The notes: generated from the letters alone by a model not told the origin. Positions 254-37,669 are shown, counted from the stretch's first letter. The stretch: 64,000 nucleotides of DNA from an uncultured delta proteobacterium (GCA_963816145.1 CAWFJP010000023.1:20156-84155); one strand, 5' to 3'. Translations and numbers: made by a program.

Positions 254-454
254 CTAACCTAAGAGGGTCGCCCTTGGATATTGGCCTTTAGTCCAATAAG
301 GGCCGAGAAGCAAACAAGCGTGCCGCCTCACCATGCTAAGATCGTCAAGAAAACGCTTCTCACAGGAGTCAACCGACGTGAGCACAATGATGGCTACGGC
401 CAGGAGTTCGATTCCGAGTGCCGAGAACTCGATGAGAGTACGGATAGATTCCAT
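254..454 (-). pseudogene. Probable truncated DUF1622-like membrane protein remnant
   Basis: N-terminus MESIRTLIEFSALGIELLAVAIIVL resembles the first DUF1622 helix; downstream sequence is unrelated and overlaps the operator site. Confidence 0.35.
279..298. promoter_or_regulatory. Palindromic operator-like site TATTGGCCTTTAGTCCAATA
   Basis: Copy of recurrent TATTGGAC-N4-GTCCAATA palindrome, ~107 nt upstream of the DUF2092 start. Confidence 0.7.
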
Positions 455-622
455 GACATCATTTCTCTAGAGGTGAGTGACGGGTTTAGCTAGCAATGGA
501 ATCTTGGAAAAAAGGCATGATGATTCGCGAATATTTTAGTATTCCATTATTCCAGGACTGCGTCGCTGAAACCTCGATGGTTGCTCTGCCCTGCTGCTGG
601 CGCAACCAACCCTCCGTCCGGA

Positions 623-1801
623 TCACAATAACAGAGCAACGATCCGATCAACCATTTCTTCCAAAGGGATTACGAAGAGGAGGAGCGGCAGCAGCGGAGC
701 AGCCAATATAATCGTCAATGAAAAGACCTGCTCCTTGCCGAAAGGCGTCAGGCGCGTCTCCTTCGCGACGGTGAAGCTGTTTGCCAGATCCGCCAATGAC
801 TGGATATCACCGGTGCCCAGCAACCGGTCGCCATCGGGGTTTCGGCCCTCGATCCATTTAGCGCGAAAGTCGCGAGTATAAACGCCGGCCACATCACCGT
901 ACTCCCGCAGCCCTCTTCGCTTCGCGTACGTCAGTTGAACACTAAAGTGAGCGGAACCAACACGAGGAGCAAAAGAAAAATTAGAATACCCGCAATCTCC
1001 AGTTTGAATTCCGGCAGGTGCGCCCCGGCGTGCCAGATGCGATTGGCAATTGCCCCCGAGAAAAAAACCGTGTGGGCCAGCAGCACAGGGGAAAAAGCAA
1101 ACATGCTTCGGGCTAAAAAACCAAGCCCGCCGGCATGATCCGGATGAAGCGTATTCAACCGCAGCGGCAGTCGCGCCACCTGCCACAAAAATCGGTACCA
1201 GATGAAAAGACGAAAGTACCGGCGCAAAACAATGAAGCGAAAGAGAGGCAGGCTGATGCAAGCGAACCAGTATCCGGCCGGCGTGAGATGCAGAGCGCCG
1301 TCGACCTCGGCGCCGTACCGCGTTGGCGCGTTGAGCGTCTGCGCTAGAGCCACCCAATGCCCCGCAAAAGCCAGGACGATCAGCAGGAGTTCCATGACAA
1401 CCAAATTACGCAAGTTCAGCGCGGAGGTGACAATTCTATTGAACCGGGGGCGGTCCTCGGCGGCGATGATCTCACGTTCGATGAACTGTCGGACGATGCC
1501 ACGGCTCCATTCGTGAACGAACAGCTCCGCTGCGATCAGAAGCGGCAATACCACCAGTAAGCGAACCTGAGCGTCGAGGGCGAAAAAAACGGCACTTGAA
1601 CACGCTGACAAGATGTCCTTGCAAAGCCGTGAGCAACGTGAGCGGCAGCCAGGCGATGGCCGTAATGACGATGATCCGGCGATTCAAAAGTTCGAGTGCG
1701 GGCCCCGACAGCCGGGTGCGTAGACAAAATTGAAACAGCGGCCCACCCAGCGCCAGGGAAAAATTCTCCGGCTCAGCGAAAATGTCGTTCTTGTTGGTCA
1801 T
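623..1801 (-). CDS. Conserved multi-pass membrane protein (two apparent frameshifts)
   Basis: Three consecutive ORF pieces (1472-1801, 931-1611, 623-~935) join into one protein: FSL..GGPLFQ ... HPD.AGGLGFL ... LLGTGDIQSLADLANSF; one break lies at an A7 run near 1585. Confidence 0.75.
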
Positions 1802-1921
1802 AAAATTTTTGCTTGCTTATTCACGAGCCGCAACAGAGCCGGGCGCGGATATCGGAGCCCCGGTGTCAGCTTGTTCGACGATGTTTACACGACGTCTCTA
1901 GACCTTAATTGAAGTCGGTCT

Positions 1922-2797
1922 CTATTTCGCAACCGGCCGGGCTACGTCCGCCGGATCGCGCAGCATTTTGCCCGTGACCAGCGCGAAAACCATATTCATT
2001 GGAATCGAGATACCGCTAAACGCCATGATCGGCGCGATTACTTCGGTGCCGGGAAAATAATAAAGCGCCACCGGAACACAAATTCCGAAATTGCGCATGG
2101 CCGTACTGATGGCGAGGACTTTTCGGTATCTGATCTCCGGGCCTCCCAGTATCCAGCCGACGACCCAACAAAGAACGGTCAAGAGCACGATCGCAGCGAT
2201 ACCGTGGGCATCCAGGGCCTTGATCGCGGGCGTCTTGAACCTGCCGCTCAGCAGCGCCGCGGCGATGAAAATCACGATCGACAACAGGCCCAACCAGCGG
2301 CCCAGTTTCGGCGCGACTTCCGGAAATCGCTTTTGCAGAGCCCGCCCCACCAAGAGCGGCGCCACCACCAACAGCAAAAATAGCAGGACGATCCGGATAA
2401 ACGGCCGGCCTTCTCCATCCGTCCTGGGAAAAAGCCAATCGGCCAATAGCGGCGTGATCAAGATCGCCAGGATCGTGAGAACGATCACCAGCGCAACCGC
2501 AAAAACGCGATCGCCTTTGGAGACGCGGGCAAATTGCAAAGCGAACAGGCCGCCTGGCGAGATTGCCAGCATCATGATGCCGATTCTGATGTCGGGCGAC
2601 AGGTTCAGCAGTCGGACGAGAATAAAGCCCAGGATGGGAACGATGATCAGGTTTGCCAACAGTCCTCGACCCATCTTGCGCCGATCCTGGAGCATCGTCA
2701 CGAGCTCGCCCCGCGTGGTCTCCAGCATGACCGAAACCATAAAGACCACGACAAAAATGAACATGACAACTTTGACGTAAAGAGGTGCATCTCCCAT
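1922..2797 (-). CDS. Bile acid:sodium symporter family transporter
   Basis: 291 aa, ~8-9 TM helices, ANLIIVP, A.SPGG and STAMRNFG motifs of the SBF/BASS family. Confidence 0.8.
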   Translation of the reverse strand: MGDAPLYVKVVMFIFVVVFMVSVMLETTRGELVTMLQDRRKMGRGLLANLIIVPILGFILVRLLNLSPDIRIGIMMLAISPGGLFALQFARVSKGDRVFAVALVIVLTILAILITPLLADWLFPRTDGEGRPFIRIVLLFLLLVVAPLLVGRALQKRFPEVAPKLGRWLGLLSIVIFIAAALLSGRFKTPAIKALDAHGIAAIVLLTVLCWVVGWILGGPEIRYRKVLAISTAMRNFGICVPVALYYFPGTEVIAPIMAFSGISIPMNMVFALVTGKMLRDPADVARPVAK

Positions 2798-3110
2798 AGG
2801 GATTCCTAAAGCCTACCAATCTCACTCGAACTGCTGGCCGCAGTCGATCGGCGACCCGCGTCAGCCGTTCGCCGTCACCTGCAATCGGGCTCAGCATACT
2901 AACCTAAAGGCGAAGCGGAGCCGTCTGTCGCAATTCTTTTATGATCCGATCGTTCACGCTTCGCTCGACGCCGCTAGTCCTCACGTAATTTCAACGGCGA
3001 TCAGTTGCTCGGCAACGCGATCGTTTCCAGTTGTTCCAGCCGCTTGAGCGCTTCGGCCATTTTTATCGTTTGATAGCCGATGCCCGCGGCGTGACTCACT
3101 TATGATCCGT

Positions 3111-4648: not shown

Positions 4649-5195
4649 TTTCTTTTTGAAGGCTTCGTTTAAATGCTGTCAAAGTACTTGATGATTACGC
4701 CGGCTACTTGTTCCCCAGTCGCAGTTCCATTCAATTGTTGGCCTGCTTTAATCGCCTGCACCAACTTTTCGTTTACCCGAATGCCAAAACTGGCCAAGAT
4801 AATTTTGTCACTAAGTGAGGAAACCGCGAGGCAAAAGCAGCAACCACGACTCCCCCCAAGAGGCCCCGGCAACGGTCGATTTTTCACGGGCATTTTGTGC
4901 TAATAGAACTTGGTGTAAGACTTCGACCTGCTCATCTAACCAACAACGGCAGAGCCGGAGATGATTTGAGCTCGCCCTGACCGGGAAAATCGAAGAGCAA
5001 CAACCTGTAATCCTCGAAAATAGCTTACCACGGGTCTCCATGCGGCATGGTTTGCTGAGCACGTTCCAAATCAGGCTCGATCCGGCCTGATAGGGATACT
5101 TCTCGAAATCGACGAAAAATTCCTTAGCTTACCGATCACTGATCACTCGCCAACGACAAGATCACCGATTACTATAATTTCCCCCTCGTCCCCCG

Positions 5196-21400: not shown

Positions 21401-21553
21401 ATCCTGCGCCCTCGCAGGCAAACCTAGAATTAGTAAACACACCGCGACTAGCAGCAACCGATGCGAAAAATGAAATAGGGGTGAGATTCTAGTTTTTTGC
21501 GGACGTGCCCGCCGCGCAGGCAGTCCCAAACTTGAGGTAGGGGCAAATTCCAT
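18488..21553 (-). CDS. Membrane-bound sigma-54 enhancer-binding protein: periplasmic ABC-binding-like sensor, TM, 2 PAS, AAA+, Fis-HTH
   Basis: [51 protein letters not shown]-terminal HTH; start uncertain (ORF open to 21610). Confidence 0.92.
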
Positions 21554-21738
21554 TGCGAAACTCTTAGCCGGGTCGACGCCCGGCAATATACCGAGTGGTG
21601 CGCGCAACAATAACCGTTACCACGGCCGCGCTTCCCGATCGCCAGCTAGACTTGGCTGGCAGCACGATCGCGTTAGGGAACTAACCGTATCGAGTGCGAT
21701 CAGGCTCACTAAATCTATCGAAGAGTTAGAAAAGGATA

Positions 21739-21758
21739 TATTGGACCTTAGTCCAATA
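21739..21758. promoter_or_regulatory. Palindromic operator-like site TATTGGACCTTAGTCCAATA
   Basis: Perfect 8-4-8 palindrome upstream of the bEBP gene. Confidence 0.75.
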
Positions 21759-21930
21759 GGCGGACGTGCCGCGATTATCTCTGTTACCTCCTGTTAAGAA
21801 CCATCCCGTTGAGGATAGTGGGCCACCGTGCCGGCCCGAACCACAGTTGTTTGGTATGACGGATCAATTATGTTTTGGATCTCGGGGTCAAGACTCCATT
21901 ATCTGTCCTTCGAAACGAGAACCCACAAGA

Positions 21931-21950
21931 TATTGGACCTTGATCCAATG
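21931..21950. promoter_or_regulatory. Palindromic operator-like site TATTGGACCTTGATCCAATG
   Basis: Second copy 192 nt from the previous one. Confidence 0.65.
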
Positions 21951-22446: not shown

Positions 22447-22857
22447 GACCAGGTCGCGAGCGTGCTGATTTTCGTTCTGGCACGCGATTGCGCTCCGAAC
22501 CACCAGTCCGCAATATCTGCCAACCCCTTATATTCAACGGCGCTTATGCCAAGTACCGACAGCTGATTAAAGCGTGGCAAGCGCAACTGTTGGATTCTCG
22601 CCCAACCCGGAGAGACCGCAGGTATTTTGGCGGGCACACAGCGAGACGGATCGCGGATCGTCAAACTTTGCGAGAGGACACGTGGAGAGTGGCCGCCTAA
22701 TGAGTCTCAAGTCTTGGCTCGAACTCTTAGCTAAAACGGACACGTGACGAATCTCGACCGCCAGAATTGTCAGTGCGGCGATGACTCAGGCGAAGACACG
22801 AAATCCTTGCCGAGACTGACGCTGCTCGCGCAAAGCCGCCAAGTTTCACCGGATGAA

Positions 22858-23193
22858 CTGCCAGACGAGAAAGCGCGCAAAGCCGGACTCTCGCCGAAGT
22901 GCATACTGAAAGCCGATAAAGACAGCGGTCGGATTGTCATCGATAGCGAAACGACGCTAACCGGCATCCCACCCGAAGCTTGGGATTACCGACTCGGCAA
23001 CCGCTCAGCGCTCGAATGGATTCTCGACCAGTACAAAGAAAAGAAACCGAAGGACCCGACGATCCGCGAAAAGTTCAACACCTACCGATTCGCCGACTAC
23101 AAAGAAAAAGTAATCGATTTGTTAATGCGCGTAACCACCGTGAGCGTCAAGACCGTTTCCGTGATCGACGCGATGAAACGCGCTTCTCGCTGA
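22858..23193 (+). pseudogene. C-terminal fragment of a type ISP restriction-modification enzyme
   Basis: GIPPEAWDYRLGNRSALEWILDQYKEKKPKDPTIREKFNTYRFADYKEKVIDLLMRVTTVSV is typical of the type ISP C-terminus; upstream portion absent. Confidence 0.8.
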
Positions 23194-23680: not shown

Positions 23681-25369
23681 CTATCTTAGCGTGATCTTCA
23701 TGCCGGCAGGTCCGACGCTCAATTGCGTGCCGGACTCCTGGCCTTCGTTTTTCAGGATCACGATGGTCACGCCCCGTTCATTTTTCATCGACATGGCGCT
23801 GGCTCCTCCGGCGATGGCAAAGGTCGCCTGGCTTGCCGCGTAGCTGCCGGTCAAATCCCCCGGGCTCCTCAGATCGTAAACTTTCCCAGCGCCGGTATAA
23901 GTCGAGACACCGATGTCCGCCAGGCTCATGCCCGAAATCGAGAACGGATAGCTCCTTCCCTGAAAGTTAAGCGTGCCCTCGCCCGAACTCCCGCCTACTC
24001 CCAAGGCCACGGTTCTCAGAGTCAGTGTGACCAGCCCCGACGGCAGTCTTTCGTCGGGCTTCTTGTAATCCGGATAGGTCTCCACCCAACTGAACAACTG
24101 TGCTTCGGCGCGATCATGAATCTGCCAGCCCCGGCTCTGGATTTCTTTTCGCGCCCGCGGGCTCAGCGTGCCGGTGAGCCAGATTTGTTTTTCCTTGACC
24201 CCCGGCAATGCGTTCACCAACTTATTCCCCGCCGTTATCATCTGCGCCATCGGTTCGGTCCAGGCCACATAGTCCGCCGGGAAATTGACCACCAACGCAC
24301 CATTGGTGGCGCGGCTCACGGCGAATTGTCCGAGGGGGATGAAATTTGCCAAGGGCGCCACCGACTTGTTGTAACCGGCATACATTTGCGCTTGGCGCTG
24401 GCGGAAGAATGCGATCATCGGGTTCTGGGTCGCCAGCGACAACCGAATCAATGCGCCACGGTCCGCCACGCCGTTCATCTCGCCCAATGCATGAACCATA
24501 AGGGTCTGCTCGCGCGGCGAAAAAACCGTGTTGTTTATATACGTGTCAGCGATCTCGGGATGGACTCCCATGGCAAGGAGTTTTTCGGTATTCATCTTGC
24601 GCAGCGCCACCGGCGGGGTGGTTTGGAAGATCTGGTTCAACAGTTTGTTGGTGCCGATGACGGTCATGGCGACACCGGCGCCGCCCGGCACCGCCGCCAT
24701 CGCTGCCGACCAGGTTAGTGATCCCGCATAGCCGGCCCATGAGATCTTGTTCAACATGTCCTGCAGCTTCTGGTTGTCCGAATAAACATCGACGTCGAAC
24801 TGATAAGCGTACTCCCGTTTGGTCGTCGAGAATCCAATGGCGTCTTTGATGCGCGCATCCTCGGACGCGCTGCGGTCGGCGCCAAACAGGCTTTCGCCGA
24901 CCCTGGAAAAGGCCGCGCCCAAACCCTGCACCGCGCCGCTCACGGTCTTCACTGGGCTGGTGATCAGACTGAGAGCGCTGGTCATGGCGTCGAGCCCGCC
25001 CTCTTTAATGGAATCGACGTATTCCTTGCTGCCCTGGACCTTCTCCATCACGACCATGGCGTTAATCTCGCCGATGCGCTTCCTCAACATGGCGGTGGAA
25101 ATGGCCGTGAAGGTGCCGAACTTGGAATCGATCTGGTAGGTGTTTAAAAAGCCGTCGTTGGTAACTCGCTCCTGGACCCGATGATTCGGTCCGGACAAAA
25201 GCTCGGGTGGCAAAATCTTTGACGCGCTGAGCACCGGCGCGGTCTCATAGGGCTGCTGGGCAAAAGCCGGTGTGACGGCTGCCAAAAGTAATCCCATCGC
25301 TACGGCGCTAATTAATCTCCATAACGGCTTGCGCAAGTTAAATCTCGGGTCGGTATTTTTGCTATTCAT
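23681..25369 (-). CDS. Exported protein with C-terminal EipA/DUF1134-like beta domain
   Basis: Signal ending AFA; C-terminus VALGVGGSSGEGTLNFQGRSYPFSISGMSL.DIG...GKVYDL...M.NE.GV.I. Confidence 0.75.
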   Translation of the reverse strand: MNSKNTDPRFNLRKPLWRLISAVAMGLLLAAVTPAFAQQPYETAPVLSASKILPPELLSGPNHRVQERVTNDGFLNTYQIDSKFGTFTAISTAMLRKRIGEINAMVVMEKVQGSKEYVDSIKEGGLDAMTSALSLITSPVKTVSGAVQGLGAAFSRVGESLFGADRSASEDARIKDAIGFSTTKREYAYQFDVDVYSDNQKLQDMLNKISWAGYAGSLTWSAAMAAVPGGAGVAMTVIGTNKLLNQIFQTTPPVALRKMNTEKLLAMGVHPEIADTYINNTVFSPREQTLMVHALGEMNGVADRGALIRLSLATQNPMIAFFRQRQAQMYAGYNKSVAPLANFIPLGQFAVSRATNGALVVNFPADYVAWTEPMAQMITAGNKLVNALPGVKEKQIWLTGTLSPRARKEIQSRGWQIHDRAEAQLFSWVETYPDYKKPDERLPSGLVTLTLRTVALGVGGSSGEGTLNFQGRSYPFSISGMSLADIGVSTYTGAGKVYDLRSPGDLTGSYAASQATFAIAGGASAMSMKNERGVTIVILKNEGQESGTQLSVGPAGMKITLR

Positions 25370-25640
25370 TCGTCTATCCCCCGTTTCATTTTACATTGAG
25401 TAATAGGTTTCAACCTGAATCCAATATGGCAACTTTTCAGCGTTACTATTTGTTCCTTTGACACTCGACCGGCACCACTTAGCCGCGGTGTTTGCAACAC
25501 GACGCGTCCCGACCCGCAAATCTCCCTACAAGCAAGTTAGAATTGGCGGCAGCAGACGCGCGACAGAGCTAACGGATCTTCAACCCGATTGGTCAGACGA
25601 TTTCATCGAAGAGAATTAGGGATGCGTTGTATTAGACCTT

Positions 25641-25660
25641 AGAGTGACCTCGGTCCATTA
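25641..25660. promoter_or_regulatory. Degenerate operator-like site
   Basis: AGAGTGACCTCGGTCCATTA with overlapping half-site TATTAGACCTTAG at 25630. Confidence 0.35.
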
Positions 25661-25925: not shown

Positions 25926-26375
25926 TTATTTCATCCTCACGAAGTACACATCATAACGCTGCTGCTCGACCGCCTGAAAATAGATTCCCCGGAGTTGGTC
26001 GGGCTCCCAATCGTAGGTCAGCGTGTAAGTGCTGCCGGGGTAATTCGGCGCGCGCAGCTCGACGAAGACCTTCACTGTCGAGCCATCGCGTGACGCATCA
26101 GCTTTGGCGATGTTGATCGGCTTGGGGTTGAGATAGACCGCGTCGATTTTGCCGTTGGCATCGACAGCCTTGATCTCCAAAATGTAACCGCCGTCGGGCC
26201 GGACCCAGCGGCCGTTCAGCGCGTCGAAATCATTGCCGCCTCCGCGCAAAAACGCAGCGGCGGCAGCGATCCCAACCAGCAGCACGAGCGTGATAGCGAT
26301 AAAAAGTTTGCCTCGCCCGCCCGACTTGGCGCGAGGGTCGGGAATTCGCAATGTCTTGTGCTTAGTCTTGCTCAT
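25926..26375 (-). CDS. Membrane-anchored conserved hypothetical protein
   Basis: TM helix then GRWVRPDGGYILEI...YLNP.PIN...ELRAPNYPGSTYTL.Y. Confidence 0.8.
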   Translation of the reverse strand: MSKTKHKTLRIPDPRAKSGGRGKLFIAITLVLLVGIAAAAAFLRGGGNDFDALNGRWVRPDGGYILEIKAVDANGKIDAVYLNPKPINIAKADASRDGSTVKVFVELRAPNYPGSTYTLTYDWEPDQLRGIYFQAVEQQRYDVYFVRMK

Positions 26376-27210: not shown

Positions 27211-27213
27211 TTC

Positions 27214-28593
27214 TTAGAACACCATCTGCATGCGCAGACCGAGGATCGTTGCCGTGCCGATGCTTTTCCGGCTCGATATAAAGGGGATTCCGATGGGGCC
27301 GGGAGCGGTGCCGATGGTGATTTTCTCTTTCTGTGCCCCTCGGACAACTTGGATGTCCGGTGTCAATTGTAGCCACGGCGTTATTGCGAAATTGTAAAAT
27401 GCCTCAAATCCGTACTCATCACGCAACAATTTAGTGTTCTGAAACGGACGGCGGAGGTCAGGATTGTTGACATCCATGTAATAGAAACCGAAGCCGTAGC
27501 GATCGTCTGCGCGAGTAGGAATAACACCTTTACCACCGATCCCCAGGCTGTAGAAAAAGTGCATGAAGTTAGGATTGCCATCCGACGCGCCGAAGCGACC
27601 GAAGACACCGATTCCTTCACCGGAGCCTTTTTTCGGCTCATAAAAATACTGGTCGAAGTTGTAATGGATGTTCCAAGAACCTTTCTTCCCCTCGAAGGCT
27701 CCGTTCTCGAACATGAAGCGCGCGTTCTGATCGATCGAAGTGAATGTCCGGTTGGAAAAAAGCGCCCCGAAAAGCTGGTGCCCGGTAAGCCCAAAAAAAT
27801 CGGTCCTCAAACGCCCCTCGCCGATAAACGTCAAGTTGTTGCCGTCAAGATCTTCGAAGCCGCTGGTGCTGGCTTTTCCGGTGGCTGAAAGAACCATAAA
27901 ACTCACGATCGCTTGAGTTGGATCTTTCGTTGGCAACGCGATGAATCCGGTGCCCAACGTCGAATAGGGCACCGTCGTCAGCAACACCGGATTGATATTA
28001 AACGCGAGGTTCATGAATTGGGTATCGCCCTTGCCGTGGGCAAACTCATTCATGTCGCCGCTATTGCTCGTGATCGTAGCGTACTTGCCGATCGTCAAGC
28101 CGAAATAAGGGGAAAGAAATTGGCTGAAGTTTAACGCCGGCAGGTTAAAGTTGTCACCGGCGGGGGTGGGATAAAACTGGCTGCTGTTGACCGGCATGAG
28201 CGCGCCGGACCTGCCGTTGATCGATTTGAGCAAACTATCGGCCGGTATGAAATTGCCCTCGGCTTCGACGGTGAGAAATCCGCCGGGCCACAAGCCAAGT
28301 TTTCCGGTGTCGAGCAGGAGATTGATGTCACCGCGCCCGCCGCCGTACTGCCAGCCGGTGTCCTTGCCGCCATGGACGATGCCTTGGGCGGCCTGGGTCA
28401 GGCTCATATCGAGGGTCACGCCCTTGGCGGCCAACTCGTTGCGCAGGCCGAACCAGTCGCCGCTGAGCGTCGAGCGCGACCAGATATCCCCTGAGTACGG
28501 GGTTGGTTCCGGCGCCTCGCCAGCGTGAAGTTGCGCGCCCAGCACAAAACTTAGCGCCAAGGCAAAGGCTACGACTATTCTCGCTAAAATCAT
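27214..28593 (-). CDS. Carbohydrate-selective porin, OprB family
   Basis: LSGDWFGLR..LA.KGV, LDT.KLGLWPGG, TQFMNLAF, YNFDQY, GFEAFYNFAITPWLQLTPDIQ, terminal Phe. Confidence 0.88.
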   Translation of the reverse strand: MILARIVVAFALALSFVLGAQLHAGEAPEPTPYSGDIWSRSTLSGDWFGLRNELAAKGVTLDMSLTQAAQGIVHGGKDTGWQYGGGRGDINLLLDTGKLGLWPGGFLTVEAEGNFIPADSLLKSINGRSGALMPVNSSQFYPTPAGDNFNLPALNFSQFLSPYFGLTIGKYATITSNSGDMNEFAHGKGDTQFMNLAFNINPVLLTTVPYSTLGTGFIALPTKDPTQAIVSFMVLSATGKASTSGFEDLDGNNLTFIGEGRLRTDFFGLTGHQLFGALFSNRTFTSIDQNARFMFENGAFEGKKGSWNIHYNFDQYFYEPKKGSGEGIGVFGRFGASDGNPNFMHFFYSLGIGGKGVIPTRADDRYGFGFYYMDVNNPDLRRPFQNTKLLRDEYGFEAFYNFAITPWLQLTPDIQVVRGAQKEKITIGTAPGPIGIPFISSRKSIGTATILGLRMQMVF

Positions 28594-28738
28594 CTCGTTT
28601 TCTCCAAACCTATTTTCATCTTTCAGTTCCGCCGCAGCGATTTTGTCTCCATGGCCATCGGTTTTTCGCCTTTGCCGTCAACCCGATTGCCGCCTTGCTC
28701 GCGAACGATGGCATCGCGACTTATCCGTGAATCTGATT

Positions 28739-29374
28739 TCACGGCCGATTCATCTCCTGGAACTGGCGCTGGTTTTGCGTCGCGATATCCTCAAGTTGTT
28801 CATAATTGAGCGCCAGCGTTTCGCAGTTCGAGATCAGCGTCGGCCAATCAACGTTGGCGCTCGCAACCAGCGCCAGATTAGTCGCCAGCGACTTTCGCAC
28901 ACTGCCGTCCTGATCCCAAAACGAGCCGAACGAGTTCGAGAAAGTATTGATGATATAATTGACGAATGACTGCATGCCTTTGAGCCCGCTTTCGATATTT
29001 ACCTGGCCCGCTTTCCGGTCGCCTTGCTTTGCCTGGGTAAGTCCGAGGTATAAGCGCGCGAGATTATCCCCTTTATGCTGCGCCAGGGCTTGCTGCAGCG
29101 TCGCCTGGGCTGCGGGAAGCTGGCCGGTAAGGTATTGAGCTCTGCCGAGATAACTCAAAACCCCTTCGCGGAGCTCAGTGCCATAGATATAGTTCGGGCT
29201 GATTTGCGCAGCGCTCTCAAAGTCGCCCAACGCGGCTTGAGTATTACCCATAAACAGCGCTTGCCTGCCGCGGGTGATATCGCTGCCACCTTGAAAACTC
29301 GCACCGCAACCCGACAGTAGGGCAACCAATAAGACTATCGACAGATGACCCAGAACACTCATTGTTCGCTTCAT
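28739..29374 (-). CDS. TPR-containing lipoprotein
   Basis: Lipobox LSGC; TPR-like YLGRAQY..G...A...L.QAL and ARLYLGL. Confidence 0.8.
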   Translation of the reverse strand: MKRTMSVLGHLSIVLLVALLSGCGASFQGGSDITRGRQALFMGNTQAALGDFESAAQISPNYIYGTELREGVLSYLGRAQYLTGQLPAAQATLQQALAQHKGDNLARLYLGLTQAKQGDRKAGQVNIESGLKGMQSFVNYIINTFSNSFGSFWDQDGSVRKSLATNLALVASANVDWPTLISNCETLALNYEQLEDIATQNQRQFQEMNRP

Positions 29375-29633
29375 GACTTCACCTCTTCTCCAGGTTTTGT
29401 TTCCAGGTATCGGTTGTCCGAGGCCAAAGCGCCCGCACCGGGCGCATTCTGCCTCCGGCTACTGAAGCCTGGAAACCGTCAATATTTGTTATCCCTCACC
29501 TCGCCGTCATTTCGGACACAGGAACTGTATCTGAAAGCGCAAAAATCGTCAGCCGGCTCATGCTCAACTGCCTTGCCGAAACCTCGACCTTGTTTCGACT
29601 CAATTCCATATACCGAAAAATCGATTATTCCCC

Positions 29634-29653
29634 TATTGGACTTTAGTCCAATA
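29634..29653. promoter_or_regulatory. Palindromic operator-like site TATTGGACTTTAGTCCAATA
   Basis: Perfect 8-4-8 palindrome ~260 nt upstream of the TPR lipoprotein/porin unit. Confidence 0.75.
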
Positions 29654-30188: not shown

Positions 30189-30929
30189 TCAGTAAACCAT
30201 TCGCGCTTTGCGCACCTGATCGGCGCGAATCCATCCCTGCTTGGCGAAAAACTCCGAGAGATAGCGCGCGACCTGATCGCCGCTCGTTGCGGCCATTCGA
30301 GCGACATCCGATTTGTAGGTCTTCACGCCTGAGACCGCGGCGTTGGCGACCACCATGCCTGCGGTTACGCCGCCGCTAACGATCGCTCCGGCGCCGAGCA
30401 TGGGCGCCGCGCCGGGCATCTTGCCACTGTCGGATTGAGTGGTGAAAGCGAGCAGCTTGCGACCGTCTGGCCCCTGATAAACTTGAACCTGACTCTCCAC
30501 CGTGGAGGCTCCGTTGCCGAAGCCAACCGCCAAACGACGCAGCGGATTGCCTTCGTCGACGGTCATAAACTGACCGTCGATCAGCAGATCGGTCCCCCCG
30601 GCCTTGGTGTCGCGGCCGACCCGCTCGACGACGAATCCGAGCGGCTTCAAGGCGTCGACAATTTCCTCGGCCAAAGCATCTTTCACTTCCCGCGCCAGAA
30701 CACGCTCCCGCTCGGAAGCGTCTTTGATGGTCGGCTGTTGGCGCATGATGCCCTGGTACTCCTTAACTTCGCCCTCGCTCACGGCGAAGTCGAGAACAAG
30801 TATACGGCTAGGCCGCGGCAGATTGGTATCAGCAACGCGCGCGGCACGGCGAATACCCGTCTGAGCGCAGGCCGCGGTTAAACACAATAGGAGTACGCCG
30901 AAATAACCACCCGTTCGGTTCGCTAACAT
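30189..30929 (-). CDS. DUF4410 family lipoprotein
   Basis: LTAAC lipobox; P.RILV.DF, G.F..VDEGN.LRR..VGFG.G.S, SGKMPGAA, QGWI. Confidence 0.8.
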   Translation of the reverse strand: MLANRTGGYFGVLLLCLTAACAQTGIRRAARVADTNLPRPSRILVLDFAVSEGEVKEYQGIMRQQPTIKDASERERVLAREVKDALAEEIVDALKPLGFVVERVGRDTKAGGTDLLIDGQFMTVDEGNPLRRLAVGFGNGASTVESQVQVYQGPDGRKLLAFTTQSDSGKMPGAAPMLGAGAIVSGGVTAGMVVANAAVSGVKTYKSDVARMAATSGDQVARYLSEFFAKQGWIRADQVRKARMVY

Positions 30930-30954
30930 ACAACACCTCCTCCTCTTGTTTAAC

Positions 30955-31172
30955 GGGTCATCGCGTAATCGAGTGGGCGCTGACTTAATGGCAAATTACT
31001 CTCCCATGGCCGGTTCCTCCCTTTCGCAAAGGGAGGTTAGGAGGGATTTTTCATGGCTTGAAAGATCGTCTTCTGCACAAAATCCCCCCAACCCCCCTTT
31101 TCTAAAGGGGGGTGAAACCTACAAGAACAGCATTTCTCAACAAATTTCACCCACTCGATTACGTGAAGAGCC
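30955..31172. mobile_element. MITE (218 bp), ISL3-like ends, 8-bp target-site duplication
   Basis: 23-bp TIRs GGGTCATCGCGTAATCGAGTGGG / revcomp GGCTCTTCACGTAATCGAGTGGG (20/23 match); TGTTTAAC directly repeated at 30947-30954 and 31173-31180; no transposase. Confidence 0.88.
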
Positions 31173-31264
31173 TGTTTAACTTCCTCAGAGCGACGAACCT
31201 ACGGCATCAAAATGCCACAAAATGGTTAGCTGAAGAAACAAACTCTGCTTGAGCGACGTCAGCG

Positions 31265-32008
31265 CTAACGCGCTTTGGCGGCCGGGCTCGGCGTCCCGGC
31301 TGTTCCGCCGACACCGATCGCGTCTCGGTAGACCATTATTTCGACCCGGCGGTTTTTCGCCCGCCCGGCCTCGGTCTTGTTATCAGCCACCGGGACGCGC
31401 TCGCCGTAGCCCACCGCCATCACCCGGCTCGGGTCGACATCTCTTTCCGCGATCAGAAACGCGGCGATGCTTTCGGCGCGCCGCTTTGACAGCTCATAAT
31501 TGTAGGTTGGCGCGCCGGAGGCATCGGTGTGGCCGGCTATTAGATAGACCAAATTGCCGCCGTCATCGGCCTGCCCCTTAACGTCGCTCAGGAAGCTGTC
31601 GATGTCTTTCTTCGCCTGGTCACTGAACTGAGCTGAGTTGGACGCGAACTGCGGCCCAGCGGTGAAATTCAACACCATTTTTCGTTCGGGCTTGAGCCGC
31701 TGCAAGCTCTCTAACGCAAGATTCGCCTTGGCGTCGGTTTGGCCGACGCGGGCTTCGAGATCGGCGATCTGTTTGGCCATGGTGTTCACCCGGGCGTCGA
31801 CTTGGGTGACCCTGCCGTCCGTCTTAGTCACATTCGCCTCTGTGTCCGAAAGTCGCTTATTGATCGGGAACAGTTGCTCGTTGGTCCAGCTTTGCACCCA
31901 GTCTTGGGTCGCTAGACAGCCCGAGGCGCCCAACATTGCGAAAACACTAAACAGCGGCAGTCCTCGCCGCAAGAAATTGGAATTATGCACAAAGAATCTC
32001 CTCTTCAA
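31265..32008 (-). CDS. OmpA/MotB-domain lipoprotein with N-terminal coiled coil
   Basis: ASGC lipobox; GHTD..G...YN.ELS.RRA, GYGE..PVADN.T.AGRAKNRRVEI. Confidence 0.92.
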   Translation of the reverse strand: MKRRFFVHNSNFLRRGLPLFSVFAMLGASGCLATQDWVQSWTNEQLFPINKRLSDTEANVTKTDGRVTQVDARVNTMAKQIADLEARVGQTDAKANLALESLQRLKPERKMVLNFTAGPQFASNSAQFSDQAKKDIDSFLSDVKGQADDGGNLVYLIAGHTDASGAPTYNYELSKRRAESIAAFLIAERDVDPSRVMAVGYGERVPVADNKTEAGRAKNRRVEIMVYRDAIGVGGTAGTPSPAAKAR

Positions 32009-32227
32009 TTAAATTTTTTCGATCCACTCTTGAAATTGTCGTTATATCTTTCCACAAGCGCCGCGCCGTAACCGATTGCACCAGCGGCACTACAGCACTC
32101 TTCCCTCGCCACTTCCATCTTTACAGGAGGCAACAGAGAAAGCAGAGAGAGTCTTAAAAATTTCTCCGTGATCTCCGTTTGCTCCTGTTAAATCCCTCGA
32201 CAACCGACACTCGACCCTCTTCACTCG

Positions 32228-32722
32228 TCACTTCACCAGCGGCACACCCTGGGCGATGTCGTACCGGATGACGGCGCGAATCTTGTTCTCGATCTGCAGG
32301 TAACGCGCGACTTTGACCATCGGCAGCGCTTTAGCGAGCTTGGGCGCGAAGGTGCTCTTGAGATTGACCTCCGCCTGTTCGATGGCGTTGGCCTCCTCGA
32401 TCAGCTTCTTTGCCTTGTCGTCGGTCAGCGACTTACTACGGAAGTCAGCGGCGTAGATCTCTAGCACATTAACGATGCGCTGATTGATCTTGCGCAATTC
32501 CTTTTGATATTCGTCATAGATCGGCCAGAAGTTCTTCGCCTCCGACTCGGTCAATTCCATGTTGCTCGCCACCAGCAGCTTTTTGTCCGCTTTGATCTTG
32601 TCACGCAGGATCTGCATGTTGTCCGCTGGCTTGTCCTGCGCCGCCAAATTCATCGATGGGAGCCCCAACAGCACGATCGCCACTGCAACGCGGATTGTTT
32701 TTTTCAATAAATCGATTCTCAT
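32228..32722 (-). CDS. Exported helical protein (Spy/CpxP-like), paralog A
   Basis: Signal; KADKKL.V...MELTESEAKNFWP.Y..YQ, SLTDDKAKKL, ARYLQIENK. Confidence 0.8.
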   Translation of the reverse strand: MRIDLLKKTIRVAVAIVLLGLPSMNLAAQDKPADNMQILRDKIKADKKLLVASNMELTESEAKNFWPIYDEYQKELRKINQRIVNVLEIYAADFRSKSLTDDKAKKLIEEANAIEQAEVNLKSTFAPKLAKALPMVKVARYLQIENKIRAVIRYDIAQGVPLVK

Positions 32723-32855
32723 TGCTTCTCTCCTTCAGGTTTCATTTGTCAGCAACCGAGGGGCGAGTGTCGGGTGTCGAGGCGAATCCCACTCGACCCT
32801 CGTCACTCGTCACCCTCTTTTTTCTCACTCGACCCTCGACACTTGTGTCGGCCGC

Positions 32856-33437
32856 CTACGGATTTGGATTGATCTTGGTAATCTTGGTTCCCTGGATGCC
32901 CATGCCGCCCATCAGTCCCTTTTGGTCAAAGATGAATGCATACACACCTTTTTGCAGGGTCGTGGTCGATAAGTTCTTGCCGAATCCTTCGTCCAACACC
33001 ACCAGGCTAGGCCCGACCCCCAATTCGAAGCCGGCAGTGTTGTCGAGATACTGCAACGACGCATTATCCATAAAAAACAGCACGTAGCCGTAGGCTTGAA
33101 TGCCGGCTTGAAATCCATACGACACCGCGAGCGAACGGTAATAGGCAACGGTCTTGCCGCGTTTGCGTAAAGCGCCGTCGCCGAATTGGCCGGCGAAGAT
33201 GAATCCGCCTTTGACGATGCTCGGGAAGACCAACACTCCGACCGCCTTGTCCGCCAATGCCTTGGCGGCCGGATAGTTTTTAGTGAGTTTCGCCACCGTC
33301 GCCCTCACGTCACGGTCGATCTCGCTCGCACTCGCCGCCTGCGCCGCAGCCGGACTCAAGACATGGAAGGTCAACAGCATCAATGCCAGCCCGACGATTA
33401 AGTTGGGCATCTTGGTATTTCGGTTATTTGCTCTCAT
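32856..33437 (-). CDS. YSC84/SYLF lipid-binding family exported protein
   Basis: GVLVFPSIVKGGFIF.GQFG.GAL, SYGFQAG.Q, VYAFIFDQKGLMGG.GIQGTKITKI. Confidence 0.88.
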   Translation of the reverse strand: MRANNRNTKMPNLIVGLALMLLTFHVLSPAAAQAASASEIDRDVRATVAKLTKNYPAAKALADKAVGVLVFPSIVKGGFIFAGQFGDGALRKRGKTVAYYRSLAVSYGFQAGIQAYGYVLFFMDNASLQYLDNTAGFELGVGPSLVVLDEGFGKNLSTTTLQKGVYAFIFDQKGLMGGMGIQGTKITKINPNP

Positions 33438-33570
33438 TCTGTGCTCCTGTCATCAAATTAGAAGGTAATCCCGCTCGCCATTTTTTACTGGAGGAAACCG
33501 AGGTTTTCGAAAATGCTCCGTTAACTCCGTTTGCTTCCGATTAGACTCCCTCGACCCTCGACCCTGATCC

Positions 33571-34062
33571 CTACTTCGCCAACGGCACCGTGGTCGCGAG
33601 ATCATATTTCAGCAGCACGCGGTACTCGTTTTCGATCTGCAGATAACGCGCGGCCTTCTTGGCCGGCAGCGCTTTCATCACCTTGGGGATGAAGGCGGTG
33701 CGTTGCTTGACGTCGTCCTGTTCAAGGGCGATCCACTCGTCGAGCAGCTTCTTGGCTTTGTCGTCGGTGAGCGACTTGCTGCGGTAGTCCGCGGCGTAGC
33801 TCTTCAACAGCGCGCCGAGACGCTCATTGATTTTCTGCAAATCGTTTTGGTAGTCCTCGTACACCGGCCAGAAGTTTTTGGCTTCCGATTCGGTCAACTC
33901 CATATATTTGGAGACAATCAATTTTTTGTCCGCCTTGAGTTTCTCGTGGACGATTTCCAGATTGTTGGCAGGCTTATCCTGCGACCGCGCAGCTATCGGC
34001 GCACTTCCGAGCGCAGCCACGAATAAAACCGCCAAAAACTTTGTCCCTGTCTTGTTCTTCAT
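33571..34062 (-). CDS. Exported helical protein, paralog B
   Basis: Shares QDKPA.N, KADKKL, MELTESEAKNFWP, SKSLTDDKAKKL, ARYLQIEN with 32228-32722. Confidence 0.8.
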   Translation of the reverse strand: MKNKTGTKFLAVLFVAALGSAPIAARSQDKPANNLEIVHEKLKADKKLIVSKYMELTESEAKNFWPVYEDYQNDLQKINERLGALLKSYAADYRSKSLTDDKAKKLLDEWIALEQDDVKQRTAFIPKVMKALPAKKAARYLQIENEYRVLLKYDLATTVPLAK

Positions 34063-34090
34063 CTCGACCCTCCCTTTTTCGATGTTTATA

Positions 34091-34513
34091 TCACGAATCA
34101 ATATTTCCCTTGACAGCTTGGCGTCCCGGCGCCGAGATCAAGTAGCCGAGCATCACCGCCGGGACGATCGCCCAAAGCAGTGCCCGCACCGGGGTGTCGC
34201 CTTGAATTATGACACTCAGCACCAGCAAAAAATTGACGATCGCCAAGCAGATTCCCAACCACCGCGCCCAATGCCGCTGCAGCAATACGCCGCATGCAAA
34301 AGCGACAAATAAGAGCGCTAGAACCGCCACCAGCATGCCCCTGCCGATGGCGATCAGTCCAAGCAACGGCAGTAACAGCAGGCCCTGCCCCATCATATCA
34401 CTGCCGACGTCGAACCACTGTAGCGCACGCAGAACAGCAGCGATGCTTTGAAGCACCGCCAGCACGGCAACGACCTTCAAGCCCAATGGATTATTTGGCA
34501 GTACCGATACCAT
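34091..34513 (-). CDS. Small 4-TM membrane protein
   Basis: Four hydrophobic helices; upstream ORF extension is repeat-derived. Confidence 0.7.
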   Translation of the reverse strand: MVSVLPNNPLGLKVVAVLAVLQSIAAVLRALQWFDVGSDMMGQGLLLLPLLGLIAIGRGMLVAVLALLFVAFACGVLLQRHWARWLGICLAIVNFLLVLSVIIQGDTPVRALLWAIVPAVMLGYLISAPGRQAVKGNIDS

Positions 34514-34636
34514 GGTGTCCCTAAAGAAGTGTCGGGTGTCGAGTGAAAAAAGCGCCCGACCCCACGTCTCTCGCCGACCCCTCGACACTCGACACTCGTC
34601 CCTCTTATCTCCCCCGACCCCCGTGCCTCGTTGCCG

Positions 34637-35608
34637 CTACGGCTTCACTTCCGTCCAGCTTTTATCAGGGTCGAACTCTTTCATCGCCTGGGCGGCTGAG
34701 CGGGTATTAGCACCCAAATCCTTTTGAAAAACTTTGCCTTCGTGGTTGACCGTGAACGTCATCACGCCGGAATTGCCGTACTCGGCGGGAAAGGCGACGA
34801 GCGCAAAGCCGCCCATCATGTTGCCATTAACGACGTAGCTGTAAGCCCCGCCAGTAGCGTTCTTTCCCTGACCCTCGAGGATCTTGTAATAGTAGCCGTA
34901 ATAAGGCGCCGCGGTTTGCCCGGCGCCCGGACCTTGAGCGGAATAGCCGGCGCCTTGAGCCTGCGCCCAGAGCGGCCCCAGCGGACTCTGCTCTTCGCCG
35001 CTCTTTGCTTCCCAGTACAGCCCATTTTTCTTACCGGCCTCGCTGCGGATGCGGCGCGCGTATTCGAGAATCTTGTCGTCGTCGCGATCCTTCATCGCAT
35101 ACTCGCGCTGGGCATCGACGAACGTCAATGCCACTTGAATCGCGTTCAATTCGTTGGTGCCGATACGGCGGTTGAGAATTTCCTCGCGGCCCTTGTCGGT
35201 GTCGAATACCCAACTATCCGCTTTCTTGACGAGCGGAATCGGGAATGGCCAGGCATTGTTGCCGATCGTGATGATCCGGCTATCGCCTTCGCTAACGATA
35301 GTGTTCTTCTCGTTATAGGCCGCCAAGAACCGCTCACGCCAATGCTTGTCCGCAACCGGATCGCCGGAAAACATCAGATCTTTGGCTTGCGCGCCGAAGA
35401 TCGCCAAGAGCTCTTTGTCATCATTACTTTTGGCGGCGGCCACCGCGGCCTTGACTGCCTCTTCGGGGCTAGCGAATGTCTTTTGTTTTGCCGGCGTAGC
35501 GGCCACGGCAAACTGGCCTATCGTGAGCGTCAAAATGATCACCGCCGCGAACCCGGCCCAATACCAATTCGTCGGTTCTTTTGGATCTGCGCTTAGATTG
35601 TGCAGCAT
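34637..35608 (-). CDS. DUF2950 family protein
   Basis: QKTFASPEEA, SGDPVAD, WPFPIPLVK, GREEILNRRIG.NEL, AQREYA, GLYW, PYYGYYYKIL, YGNSGVMTF.VN. Confidence 0.92.
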   Translation of the reverse strand: MLHNLSADPKEPTNWYWAGFAAVIILTLTIGQFAVAATPAKQKTFASPEEAVKAAVAAAKSNDDKELLAIFGAQAKDLMFSGDPVADKHWRERFLAAYNEKNTIVSEGDSRIITIGNNAWPFPIPLVKKADSWVFDTDKGREEILNRRIGTNELNAIQVALTFVDAQREYAMKDRDDDKILEYARRIRSEAGKKNGLYWEAKSGEEQSPLGPLWAQAQGAGYSAQGPGAGQTAAPYYGYYYKILEGQGKNATGGAYSYVVNGNMMGGFALVAFPAEYGNSGVMTFTVNHEGKVFQKDLGANTRSAAQAMKEFDPDKSWTEVKP

Positions 35609-35664
35609 CGCTTCTTTCTCCCTAACCTACGGCTCACCGTGAAGTTCTGAGCAAAGCCAAACCA

Positions 35665-37037
35665 TCAGCGGCGTCCGCCACCGCCACCGCCGCCTCTGGC
35701 ACCACCGCCACTCCGTGCAGCGCCACCACTGCTCGTGCGGCTCGCGCTGCCGCGTTGGCTGGAGCTTTTGGCGGAACTGCCACCGCGGTCGATGCCTTCA
35801 AACGCGCCGCCGCGGCTGCTCGAAGCACCAAGGTTGGCGTTCGACTGGCTCGCGCCGCCGCGGCTGCCGGCAGTCGCCGAAGTTCTAGCCTGTTCGCCGC
35901 CACGCGCCTGCTGGGTTCTGGTTGCGGCGCTCGTTGCTGCCGGCTGGTCGATTGTTGCTGCGGCTTGCTGCGCTTGCTGTCCGGTGTTTTGTTGCTGGGC
36001 CTGCTGACCGGCTGATTGCTGACGAGCTTGTTGAGCTTGCTGTCCGGTTTGTTGTTGCTGCGCTTGCTGCGCTCGTTGTTGCGCCTTTGCTGTTCCGCTG
36101 GGGTCAAAGCACTGCCGGTGTAACCGCGATACGCCTGGCGCGCCTGAACCTGTTGGCTCGGCGACGCCTGGTTATATTTCTGCGCCACCGCTTGATTGCC
36201 GTAGGGAACTCCCTTGCGATTGGCCGCATTGTGCTGCCAATTACCCTGCGCGTTTGCCGGTAGCTGATTTGCGTATACGTTGCGGTTGATGTTGGTGTTG
36301 ATATTGACGTTCTGGTTGTAATTGTAGTGAACGTGTCCGTTGTTCCAGTTAGGGCTGCCCCATGCGTAGCCCCAGGCCGCGCCTAGCGCGACCGCGCTGC
36401 CAAACCAAAATGCCGACCTTGCCGCGACATATCCTGGCGGATAGTAGTAATACGGTGGATAGGCCGGATAGGGCCAGGTGCCATAGACTACGGTTGGATT
36501 GTAGGCGGGAACATAGACGACCTGCGGACTGGCAGGCTCGATGACAATGATCTTATCCTGAACGATCACCTTTTGCTCTTGCGTCGTTTTAAGATTACCC
36601 GCCGCTTGCGCCTTGGCACGCAGACTCTGGATGGTATCCATGACGGGCTTTTCCCCTGCAAGAAACGCGTCGCCCAGTTTTTGCGTCCAATCGAGCTTCT
36701 CGTTCATCATGGTCAACACCTGGGGGAAATTGACCAGCGACTTCACGCTCGGGTCCCAGCTCTGCGCTTCCAGCGCTTTGGTCAAGGCGTCGCCTTTGAG
36801 ATTTGCGTTCTGTTTGGCGAATCGGGCGGCGTTAACCACATCGAGCGGATACGTCGACGCCATCAGGATCTGCGCGATCAATGAATCAGGATAGAGCGCG
36901 ATCGGCGCGAGCAACTGATCGAGCTCTTCCTGCTTAACCACCGGGGCATTAGCCGCATCCTGCGCCCATGTCCCCGGAGGTACAGCCAACAGCGTAACCA
37001 AATAACATGAAAGCGCAATTTTTATGACTTGCCTCAT
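35665..37037 (-). CDS. DUF3300 family protein with Gln/Gly-rich tail (frameshift near 36085)
   Basis: LDQLLAPIALYPD.L.AQILMASTYP, WDPSVKSL..FP, WTQKLGDAFL, VYVP.YNP.VVYG.WPYP; the alternative frame gives the typical ...GGGGGGRR stop at 35665. Confidence 0.9.
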
Positions 37038-37153
37038 TATGCTCTCTTCGCTTTTACTCGTTCACTTAGTGAATATGACGCCGCTATACCAGTTTTCTGG
37101 TGACTCCCCAGGCGCACGACACTCAATTTCGCGCCAGACACTTTGCCTTGGGC

Positions 37154-37558
37154 CTATGGTTTATCGCCACCCGCCACTTCGCTCGCCAGCGCCGCGCGCA
37201 ATGTTTTAATCAATAACTCATCGTCGAAGGGCTTGCGCAAAAAGGCCATCGCTCCGGATGCCAACGCCCGCTCGCGCACGCCGACTTCGTCATGCGCCGT
37301 GATAAAGATAACCGGAATGGGGTTGCCGCCGCGCGCGAGCCGTTCCTGGGTTTCCAGACCGTTCATGCCCGGCATTTGCACATCCAAAATGGCGCAGTCA
37401 GCTTGAAACGACGGCATCGCGTCGATACAGTCCAAAAACTCTTGCCCCGACGCGAAGGTCTCAGCGTTCATGCCGAGGGAGCGAACGAGTCTTTTCAAAG
37501 CTCGACGGACCGAAACGTCATCATCGACGATCGCGATCAATGGCAGGCCTTTGGTCAT
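37154..37558 (-). CDS. Single-domain response regulator
   Basis: IAIVDDD.SVR, ILDVQMPGMNG, IFITAHD, FLRKPF. Confidence 0.92.
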   Translation of the reverse strand: MTKGLPLIAIVDDDVSVRRALKRLVRSLGMNAETFASGQEFLDCIDAMPSFQADCAILDVQMPGMNGLETQERLARGGNPIPVIFITAHDEVGVRERALASGAMAFLRKPFDDELLIKTLRAALASEVAGGDKP

Positions 37559-37649
37559 TAAATTTTGTTGCGCAAGACATTCGAGGACAAACCAGATCCC
37601 GAACAGCTTTCGCTAACGATCATCTATATAGGAGAGCAGAAGGGCTGTA

Positions 37650-37669
37650 TATTGGACCTTGGTCCAACA
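37650..37669. promoter_or_regulatory. Palindromic operator-like site TATTGGACCTTGGTCCAACA
   Basis: Between the LuxR-type regulator and the single-domain receiver, ~90 nt upstream of the latter. Confidence 0.75.

Follow-up and report, generated by a model that had tools for sequence, protein, structure and literature searches.

A polar 20-bp palindrome as the predicted operator of a FixJ/StyR-type response regulator in an uncultured delta proteobacterium

The DNA analysed here, a window of 64,000 nucleotides from the genome of an uncultured delta proteobacterium (G000:C23:20156-84155 in its assembly), encodes on its minus strand a histidine kinase and a response regulator (37761-38402), followed by a stand-alone receiver gene and a row of genes that includes DUF3300 and DUF2950 (Table 1). 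The spacer between regulator and receiver contains a 20-base palindrome that recurs elsewhere in the window and that a first-pass annotation, made from the sequence alone, had proposed as the operator of the regulator. With the consensus TATTGGAC-YAAR-GTCCAATA, this motif is in our view probably the operator of 37761-38402; its position in front of genes, its co-occurrence with the regulator and their adjacency across phyla support the proposal from comparisons of sequences.

Table 1. Features of the window, and operator copies on the other contigs with the genes behind them
Feature	Position	Strand	Remarks
DUF2092 gene, 5' part, runs off the window	1..225	-	Pfam, gene calls
Operator copy, 1 mismatch	279..298	-	54 nt 5' of the DUF2092 GTG start (window 225); -10-like TAGGTT 251-256
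Membrane-anchored sigma-54 enhancer-binding protein	18488..21610	-	target of copy 21739 and distal copy 21931
Operator copy, perfect	21739..21758	-	129 nt 5' of the sigma-54 activator; -35-like TATATC 21735-21740, -10-like TAGATT 21712-21717
Distal operator copy, 2 mismatches	21931..21950	-	192 bp upstream of copy 21739; usual -10-like position empty
562-aa protein with hydrophobic N-terminal stretch	23681..25369	-	behind the split operator
Split/degenerate operator	25630..25660	-	proximal half and centre retained, distal half shifted by 11 bp; -10-like GATGAAAT downstream
TPR protein (28739-29374) and OprB-family porin (27214-28593)	27214..29374	-	behind copy 29634
Operator copy, perfect	29634..29653	-	260 nt 5' of the TPR gene; -10-like TATATG 29607-29612
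Row of DUF3300, DUF2950, two unknown small proteins, SYLF/Ysc84 lipoprotein, unknown protein, OmpA-like, DUF4410	30189..37037	-	
Stand-alone receiver, CheY-like	37154..37558	-	first gene behind copy 37650
Operator copy, 1 mismatch	37650..37669	-	92 nt past the regulator stop, 92 nt ahead of the receiver start; -35-like TATACA 37646-37651, -10-like TATATAGAT 37622-37630
FixJ/StyR-type response regulator, proposed cognate factor	37761..38402	-	receiver and GerE/LuxR HTH
Histidine kinase	38399..42211	-	periplasmic binding-protein-like domain, several PAS, HisKA, HATPase
Operator copy	C24:3017		MlaC, phospholipase D
Operator copy, GTAC type	C24:17076		receiver; SBF transporter and DUF2092 genes further along the strand
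Operator copy	C24:23401		unknown protein, amylase-like protein
Operator copy	C24:34433		LOG-like, DUF2934, GH63-like
Operator copy	C24:40944		phosphoketolase
Operator copy	C24:58548		HlyD, AcrB, OEP (RND efflux)
Operator copy	C24:98570		unknown protein, sulfatase
Operator copy	C9:28841		acyltransferase
Operator copy	C9:55208		sulfatase, DUF1622, DUF202

The regulator consists of a receiver domain (PF00072, E 7.1e-27, residues 4-114) and a GerE/LuxR helix-turn-helix (HTH) domain (PF00196, E 1e-19, residues 139-195). Its best matches among solved structures were StyR (1yio, E 3.5e-58) and FixJ (5xso, 9.3e-46), which bear out the type assigned to it in the first-pass annotation; DevR (3c3w) reached 1.1e-14 over the full length. 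With the HTH domain alone, the values were 1.2e-14 for StyR, 2.6e-14 for FixJ, 4e-13 for EL222 and 1.3e-5 for DevR (1zlj). The best NCBIfam model was FixJ (NF006900), and because its score of 216.8 bits lies under the equivalog cut-off of 255, we did not file the protein as FixJ. G000 encodes three full-length proteins of the FixJ/StyR type, one each on contigs C23, C24 and C31, and behind every one of their genes lies a gene for a stand-alone receiver. The receiver in the window is 43.5% identical to the regulator's own receiver domain.

The window holds five copies of the palindrome where 0.07 are expected (100 dinucleotide shuffles, none of which reached five). All five were found where the first-pass annotation had placed them, with 1, 0, 2, 0 and 1 mismatches in order of position, and gene calls agree with it that they lie outside intact genes. 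The distances to the next start codon on the minus strand, which it had put at about 90-380 nt, are 54, 129, 321, 260 and 92 nt. Past 37669 no copy with up to three mismatches occurs in the window, and the reported lack of a full copy in 44-64 kb holds accordingly. In the whole 7.82-Mb assembly we found 14 copies, of which 5, 5 and 4 have 0, 1 and 2 mismatches, respectively; all are confined to contigs C23 (5, all within the window), C24 (7) and C9 (2), and the reversed-pattern control had no match. By gene calls, all 14 are intergenic and lie 54-321 nt upstream of a start codon; the motif is not scattered over the genome. A further 14 matches with three mismatches are dispersed, and since their number is close to the arithmetic expectation of about 27 (for uniform composition), we regard them mostly as noise. 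When the copies were aligned with 80 nt per side, similarity was restricted to the central 20-22 bases and the flanks were unrelated, which argues against a mobile repeat. Judged by this sequence context, the motif behaves like a promoter-linked operator and not like a repeat.

A sixth, degenerate copy had been noted at 25641-25660. It is real, although the term split site suits it better; it spans 25630-25660 and in gene-ward direction reads TAATGGAC-CGAG-GTCAC/TC-TAAG-GTCTAATA; the insertion of 11 bp amounts to one helical turn. Orthologous targets keep intact operators: on the metagenome contig L155, an 80%-identical orthologue of the 562-aa gene behind the split site has a perfect copy 240 nt before its start, and the same holds for a homologous sigma-54 activator (see below). 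The label EipA-like, which had been given to a gene in this region, found no backing, as neither 25926-26375 nor 23681-25369 matched any Pfam family at E<=0.5.

The centre of the motif is not palindromic but reads Y-A-A-R towards the adjacent gene. For this analysis we pooled the 14 copies of G000 with 23 copies of a relative, G018, all from one stretch of 160 kb, giving 37 sites. The central AA is on the coding strand of the neighboring gene in 35 of them; the two misses are the GTAC variant at C24:17076, whose centre TGAA cannot be oriented by the rule, and a G018 site beside a weak ORF call. In the divergent G018 pairs 651362/651390 and 554601/554766, each copy points to its own gene, and since the members of a pair oppose each other, the polarity tracks transcription and not the replication strand. 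Further, the proximal end of the palindrome is nearly invariant (T19 in 37/37 sites, A20 in 34/37), whereas the distal end is variable (T1 and A2 in 29/37 each).

Beyond the proximal end, T and A occur at positions 42 and 43 in 27/37 and 25/37 sites, respectively, and a TANNNT starts at positions 41-44 in 13 of the 37, compared to 1.7% in other windows of four positions. Positions 19-24 (TA[T/G]ACA) thus look like a weak -35 element and positions 42-47 like a -10 element, separated by 17 nt, with the operator overlapping the -35-like hexamer by 2 bp. Relative to starts inferred from these elements, the operator centre would lie near -43. This in silico geometry is that of a class II activator site, which is expected to be centred near -41.5 to -43.5, to abut or overlap the -35 and to keep a fixed distance from the -10. 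Tandem pairs occur in the window (21739-21950, 192 bp apart) and in G018 (C14:579748-579968, 201 bp apart, upstream of OprB), and in both the -10-like element is found behind the proximal copy only. Because copy 21931 lacks this element at the usual distance, it is likely auxiliary; such distal copies may act by analogy with StyR, for which an excerpt of PMC2442086 describes extra upstream sites that bind cooperatively.

Sites outside these genomes show the same arrangement. When metagenome contigs were scanned for exact copies with YAAR at the centre, at least 128 stretches matched, and 80 loci fetched from them gave 79 distinct sites. Among the 71 sites with at least 400 nt of downstream sequence, 59 have an ORF on the same strand within 700 nt (median distance 115 nt), 3 have one on the opposite strand and 9 have none; five of the 71 lie inside an ORF call. 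The flank consensus is ...AATA-tACa-N17-ttCG.TA.a, in which positions 19-24 read TA[T/G]ACA. Of 75 sites, 65 have a TA at 41-43, where the background is 0.11. The regulator lies directly upstream in 5 of the 58 sites with sufficient upstream sequence and a receiver directly downstream in 10 of 67, rates that are about those expected for a regulon of 10-24 sites per genome.

To connect the motif with the regulator, we surveyed 40 other genomes, 24 from the same genus, 11 from family f3 and 5 from family f2 (motif with up to two mismatches, orthologue at E<=1e-30; the tallies include the unpublished genome G005). The motif was found in 20/24 genomes of the genus, with 1-24 copies compared to 0-2 in the reversed-pattern controls, in none of the 11 f3 genomes and weakly in 3/5 f2 genomes. 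Orthologues of the regulator were present in 12/24 genomes of the genus and in 0/16 of the others. Every one of the 12 genomes with an orthologue also has the motif, and the 17 genomes lacking the motif lack an orthologue as well. In G002, G009, G010, G017 and G018 the motif immediately follows the orthologue, and in G005 the distance between them is about 500 nt.

This adjacency extends far beyond the genus. In the 26 closest regulator loci from named metagenome-assembled genomes (MAGs) of other lineages, which include Thermodesulfobacteriota, Desulfamplus, Acidobacteriota, Nitrospirota, Hydrogenedentes, Sedimentisphaerales and Phycisphaerales (43-65% identity), nine have the motif between the stop codon and 105 nt beyond it, always with YAAR pointing downstream; in five of the nine, the next gene is a stand-alone receiver. 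At least six phyla thus have the motif directly behind the stop codon of an orthologue. Two further loci carry variants with the same layout, CATACGAC-CAAG-GTCGTATG and CATAGAAC-CAAA-GTTCTATA. Among 54 more distant loci (27-33% identity), no copy was found except for one match with four mismatches upstream of the gene.

The recognition helix changes together with the operator. It reads EKT[IV]KVHR[SAG]R in regulators that adjoin GGAC operators, whereas operators of the form TATTGTAC-N4-GTACAATA, with GTAC, adjoin two regulators with the helix TERT[IV]KAHR, the C24 paralogue of G000 and one from a Sedimentisphaerales MAG. In both GTAC sites (C24:17076-17095 and L049:4639-4658), which come from unrelated lineages, both arms are altered, and the C24 paralogue adjoins the only GTAC copy of its genome. 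FixJ-like loci with the helix TVE[AI]H[RK]SK lack the motif. Residues of the recognition helix thus co-vary with the change from GGAC to GTAC, which lends indirect support to specific binding by the regulator. The spacer downstream of the C31 paralogue (C31:433200-434700) has no motif copy; it contains inverted GGTTTCAG / CTGAAACC repeats, which may be a different operator.

By theme, the genes behind the copies concern porins, the handling of envelope lipids, and the homeostasis of ions or acid. Within the window, Pfam confirmed the downstream units that had been named earlier: DUF2092, the sigma-54 activator, the TPR protein with the OprB porin, and receiver-DUF3300-DUF2950. On the contig, the row behind copy 279 continues from DUF2092 through two small ORFs, two PqiA genes and an MlaD-type PqiB to a PqiC-like lipoprotein, and beyond the window the regulon reaches Mla/Pqi lipid transport, phospholipase D, sulfatases, RND efflux and phosphoketolase. 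In G018, 23 of 24 copies lie inside one 160-kb stretch (G018:C14:510407-670020), so that the regulon forms a physical cluster resembling an island. The targets in common with G000 are DUF3300, PLD, OprB, DUF4410, sulfatase-DUF202-DUF1622, GH63-like, RND and Mla/Pqi genes, to which G018 adds MlaEFD, MlaA, patatin, carbonic anhydrases, MscS, a molybdopterin oxidoreductase and succinate dehydrogenase/fumarate reductase (Sdh/Frd).

At the metagenome sites, the commonest first genes are receivers (8 in the Pfam table); other targets are HdeA (2), DUF308 (2), Asp-Al_Ex (2), DUF1254/DUF1214 (3), PqiA (3 ORFs on 2 contigs), Sdh/Frd (3) and a sigma-54 activator (1). Among the targets of the operator, it is the stand-alone receiver gene that is conserved best, and not the DUF3300 island. 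The earlier idea that one system ties the envelope genes together is supported, while its scope has to be redrawn, as the window shows only about a third of the regulon. In loci L147 and L196, HdeA-family genes stand directly behind perfect copies, followed in L147 by DUF308, hinting at an acid-stress link of the regulon in some relatives.

The first-pass annotation had also placed the sigma-54 activator under the regulator, as a cascade. Such control is plausible, because a perfect copy and a -10-like TAGATT lie upstream of the gene and a homologue is arranged likewise. This homologue comes from a metagenome contig; its identity to the activator is 38% over the sensor part and 87% over as much of the AAA+ region as the contig includes, and a perfect operator copy precedes it as well. 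The activator and the kinase are themselves related, with 33% identity over 585 residues (E 5e-85); the part they have in common comprises the periplasmic domain, a transmembrane segment and the first PAS domain. A periplasmic binding-protein-like sensor on a membrane-anchored enhancer-binding protein is an unusual input.

From these observations we propose the following mechanism. The kinase 38399-42211 would phosphorylate the regulator, whose dimer would occupy the palindrome with one GerE-type HTH per half-site, as is usual in its family. Bound with its centre near -43, the dimer would most likely act as a class II activator, overlapping the weak -35-like TA[T/G]ACA by its 2 bp, with the -10-like TA.A.. 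located 17 nt further on. In G000, at least 14 promoters on three contigs would be headed by the operator. The receiver gene directly behind the regulator would be the ancestral target, and its product would probably exert feedback on the phosphorelay, by draining phosphate or by inhibiting the kinase.

Several observations weigh against this mechanism or against the assignment on which it builds. The -10-like element is loose, with a strict TANNNT in only 13/37 and 32/75 sites, and a scan for sigma-70 consensus promoters gave 7 promoter-like sites compared to 7.9 expected and none at the copies; although this agrees with a weak -35, it is uninformative as support. A symmetric dimer offers no reason why the YAAR centre should be conserved and asymmetric. 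Binding by another factor would fit two genomes of the genus in which no full-length regulator was found even at E<=1e-8, G006 (5 copies; 99% complete, in 430 contigs) and G011 (13 copies; 88% complete, in 680 contigs), and at least three receiver-proximal metagenome copies without a regulator directly upstream. Fragmentation of the assemblies may account for the gap in the two genomes, a second binding protein being the other possibility; the G006 copies are on contigs of 4.8-12.3 kb, and the receiver-proximal motif of G011 lies 420 nt from a contig end, those 420 nt encoding no regulator. Within G000, the 46%-identical paralogue C24:17211-17834 could share sites. That the motif belongs to some other DNA-binding protein, or mainly to this paralogue, and adjoins 37761-38402 through co-inheritance of a cassette, is nevertheless improbable in view of the agreement between motif and regulator in 29 of the 40 other genomes, with no regulator lacking the motif, their adjacency in at least six phyla, the covariation of helix and operator, and the location of the sole GTAC copy of the genome beside the C24 paralogue. 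The 2-bp overlap with the -35-like hexamer would also suit a repressor that blocks the -35 edge until a signal lifts it, and according to an excerpt of PMC2442086, extra StyR sites permit a repressive loop, with the window containing a tandem pair 192 bp apart. We consider repression by the same regulator from the same operator unlikely, given that the hexamer is weak, that no sigma-70 consensus promoter occurs at the copies, that a centre near -43 leaves the -35/-10 core free and that the closest characterised relative activates from about -40.

It is very improbable that the motif acts as a nucleic-acid structure without serving as the operator of a protein, whether as a REP-like repeat or as a terminator or hairpin in the RNA behind the regulator gene. 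The palindrome could form a stem of 8 bp with a 4-nt loop, reaching a z-score of -3.9 in one copy, the sites C24:17076 and C24:58548 change both arms together, the centre is polar, and one RNA-library contig spans copy 37650; yet only one of the five window copies is terminator-like, the z-scores of the other four lie between -0.4 and -1.8, and the flanks are unrelated. Single changes gather in the distal arm while the proximal pairing partner is invariant, which argues against selection for pairing, and the fixed distance to the -10-like element places the motif upstream of the predicted start. An RNA hairpin was also tried as a candidate by itself and rejected, because wobble-compatible changes occur on both strands and the pairing partners are not co-conserved. 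Contigs from four soil metatranscriptome runs cover the regulator gene (for example 37857-38231 with 2 differences, 37933-38244 with none) and part of the DUF3300/DUF2950 junction, and one spans 37635-37858; none lies on the receiver gene, in a set of contigs that show no starts, strand or level and may include DNA carry-over. As to the sigma-54 activator 18488-21610, enhancer-binding proteins use palindromic sites upstream of promoters, and this one is encoded behind two copies. That the motif is its upstream activating sequence can hardly be credited, however, as -24/-12-like elements (up to three mismatches) are not enriched within 250 nt downstream (7/109 segments compared to 46/545 random ones), the distance to a sigma-70-type -10 is fixed, and the companion of the motif in other phyla is the FixJ/StyR-type gene and not an enhancer-binding protein.

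Regulation of 37761-38402 targets through this operator, which we continue to favor, would belong to a well-known kind of system, although the regulator-operator pair itself appears undescribed. Two 16-mers of the motif were absent from the papers listed in a literature search, and its 8-mers were met in unrelated contexts among the matches listed; DUF3300 or DUF2950 are named in three papers. The closest solved relative is StyR of the Pseudomonas StyS/StyR system (compare also TodS/TodT), with which the regulator shares a receiver and a GerE HTH. According to PMC2442086, phosphorylation makes StyR dimerise, and PstyA is activated from a high-affinity inverted repeat at about -40 from the start. 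The differences to StyS/StyR are a kinase with a periplasmic binding-protein-like domain and several PAS domains, and about 14 envelope/transport promoters, with a receiver as first target, where StyR has one catabolic operon. The operators also differ in sequence and length, the StyR box being a shorter palindrome; a candidate string for it had no match among the papers listed.

FixJ of FixL/FixJ is the best NCBIfam match and ranks second among the solved relatives (5xso). FixLJ, too, is known to receive feedback from a small additional protein, the Caulobacter FixT being a single-domain receiver. Yet the score stays under the FixJ equivalog cut-off, and the FixJ-like loci mentioned above lack the motif; we identified no haem-PAS FixL-type kinase, and no fix or nif genes among the downstream genes scanned. 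The lux box of LuxR/TraR is likewise a 20-bp palindrome that is bound by a dimer of LuxR-type HTH domains, overlaps the -35 and serves class II activation, but the regulator described here is of the phosphorylation-controlled and not of the autoinducer-controlled type, the operator sequence is unrelated and its centre is polar.

A DosR-type system was at first suspected, because of the GGAC-N4-GTCC core of the motif and the NAPRTase, ribonucleotide reductase, PGA_cap and Usp genes in 44-64 kb. DosR/DevR of Mycobacterium tuberculosis also uses a 20-bp palindrome with this core and an A/T centre, and governs a stress regulon of multiple promoters with tandem boxes. The half-site here, TATTGGAC (TTGGAC[C/T]), is however not TTSGGGAC or GGGACT, and kinase and targets differ. 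The DosR/DevR box consensus TTSGGGACTWWAGTCCCSAA occurs in excerpts of PMC2275270 and PMC2703886, and one of PMC3177182 has the C-terminal dimer of DevR contacting G4G5G6A7C8T9 in each half. With DevR being only a distant match and no motif copy present in 44-64 kb, we rejected this candidate. The region 43926-63734 is an observation in its own right, combining NAPRTase, ribonucleotide reductase, alpha/beta hydrolases, PGA_cap, ClpB and tandem-Usp genes without a motif copy, a set reminiscent of the mycobacterial dormancy-regulon neighborhood.

Three other ORFs of the window deserve mention. A 477-aa ORF at 3111-4544 matches mechanosensitive-channel domains (residues 28-134) as well as sulfatase domains (152-426) and is either a fusion or a mis-joined frame; an S-adenosylmethionine synthetase of archaeal type (PF01941, E 6e-146) is encoded at 49425-50651, although the genome is bacterial; and the 149-aa ORF at 22744-23193, which matches only the C-terminal end of the Type ISP restriction-enzyme specificity domain (PF18135), is probably what is left of a gene.

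As a kind of system, two-component regulons with palindromic operators of the LuxR type are textbook material; what stands out here is the cross-phylum cassette of regulator, operator and receiver, and the polar centre of the operator. As a tentative synthesis, which we hold to be possible rather than likely, kinase, FixJ/StyR-like regulator, polar 20-bp operator and receiver may form an ancient, horizontally mobile module, present in at least six phyla and expanded in one uncultured soil genus to a regulon island of about 160 kb with 14-24 promoters, in which YAAR would act as a direction signal for an intrinsically asymmetric complex of regulator and polymerase. The natural variants of helix and operator (V to A with GGAC to GTAC) would provide a test of base-specific recognition in the FixJ/StyR branch. 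For the uncultured soil lineage, the motif offers a regulon model that is transferable to metagenome contigs, given the number of stretches with an exact copy, and one purified regulator with one 20-mer would be an experimental entry point to families of unknown function. DUF3300, DUF2950, DUF2092, DUF4410 and the Pfam-less 562-aa family would be joined to one signal pathway with Mla/Pqi, porins and sulfatases. If the synthesis is true, the island coordinates outer-membrane lipid transport (Mla/Pqi, phospholipases), porins, sulfatases and ion/acid homeostasis, and the four DUF families would be part of this response.

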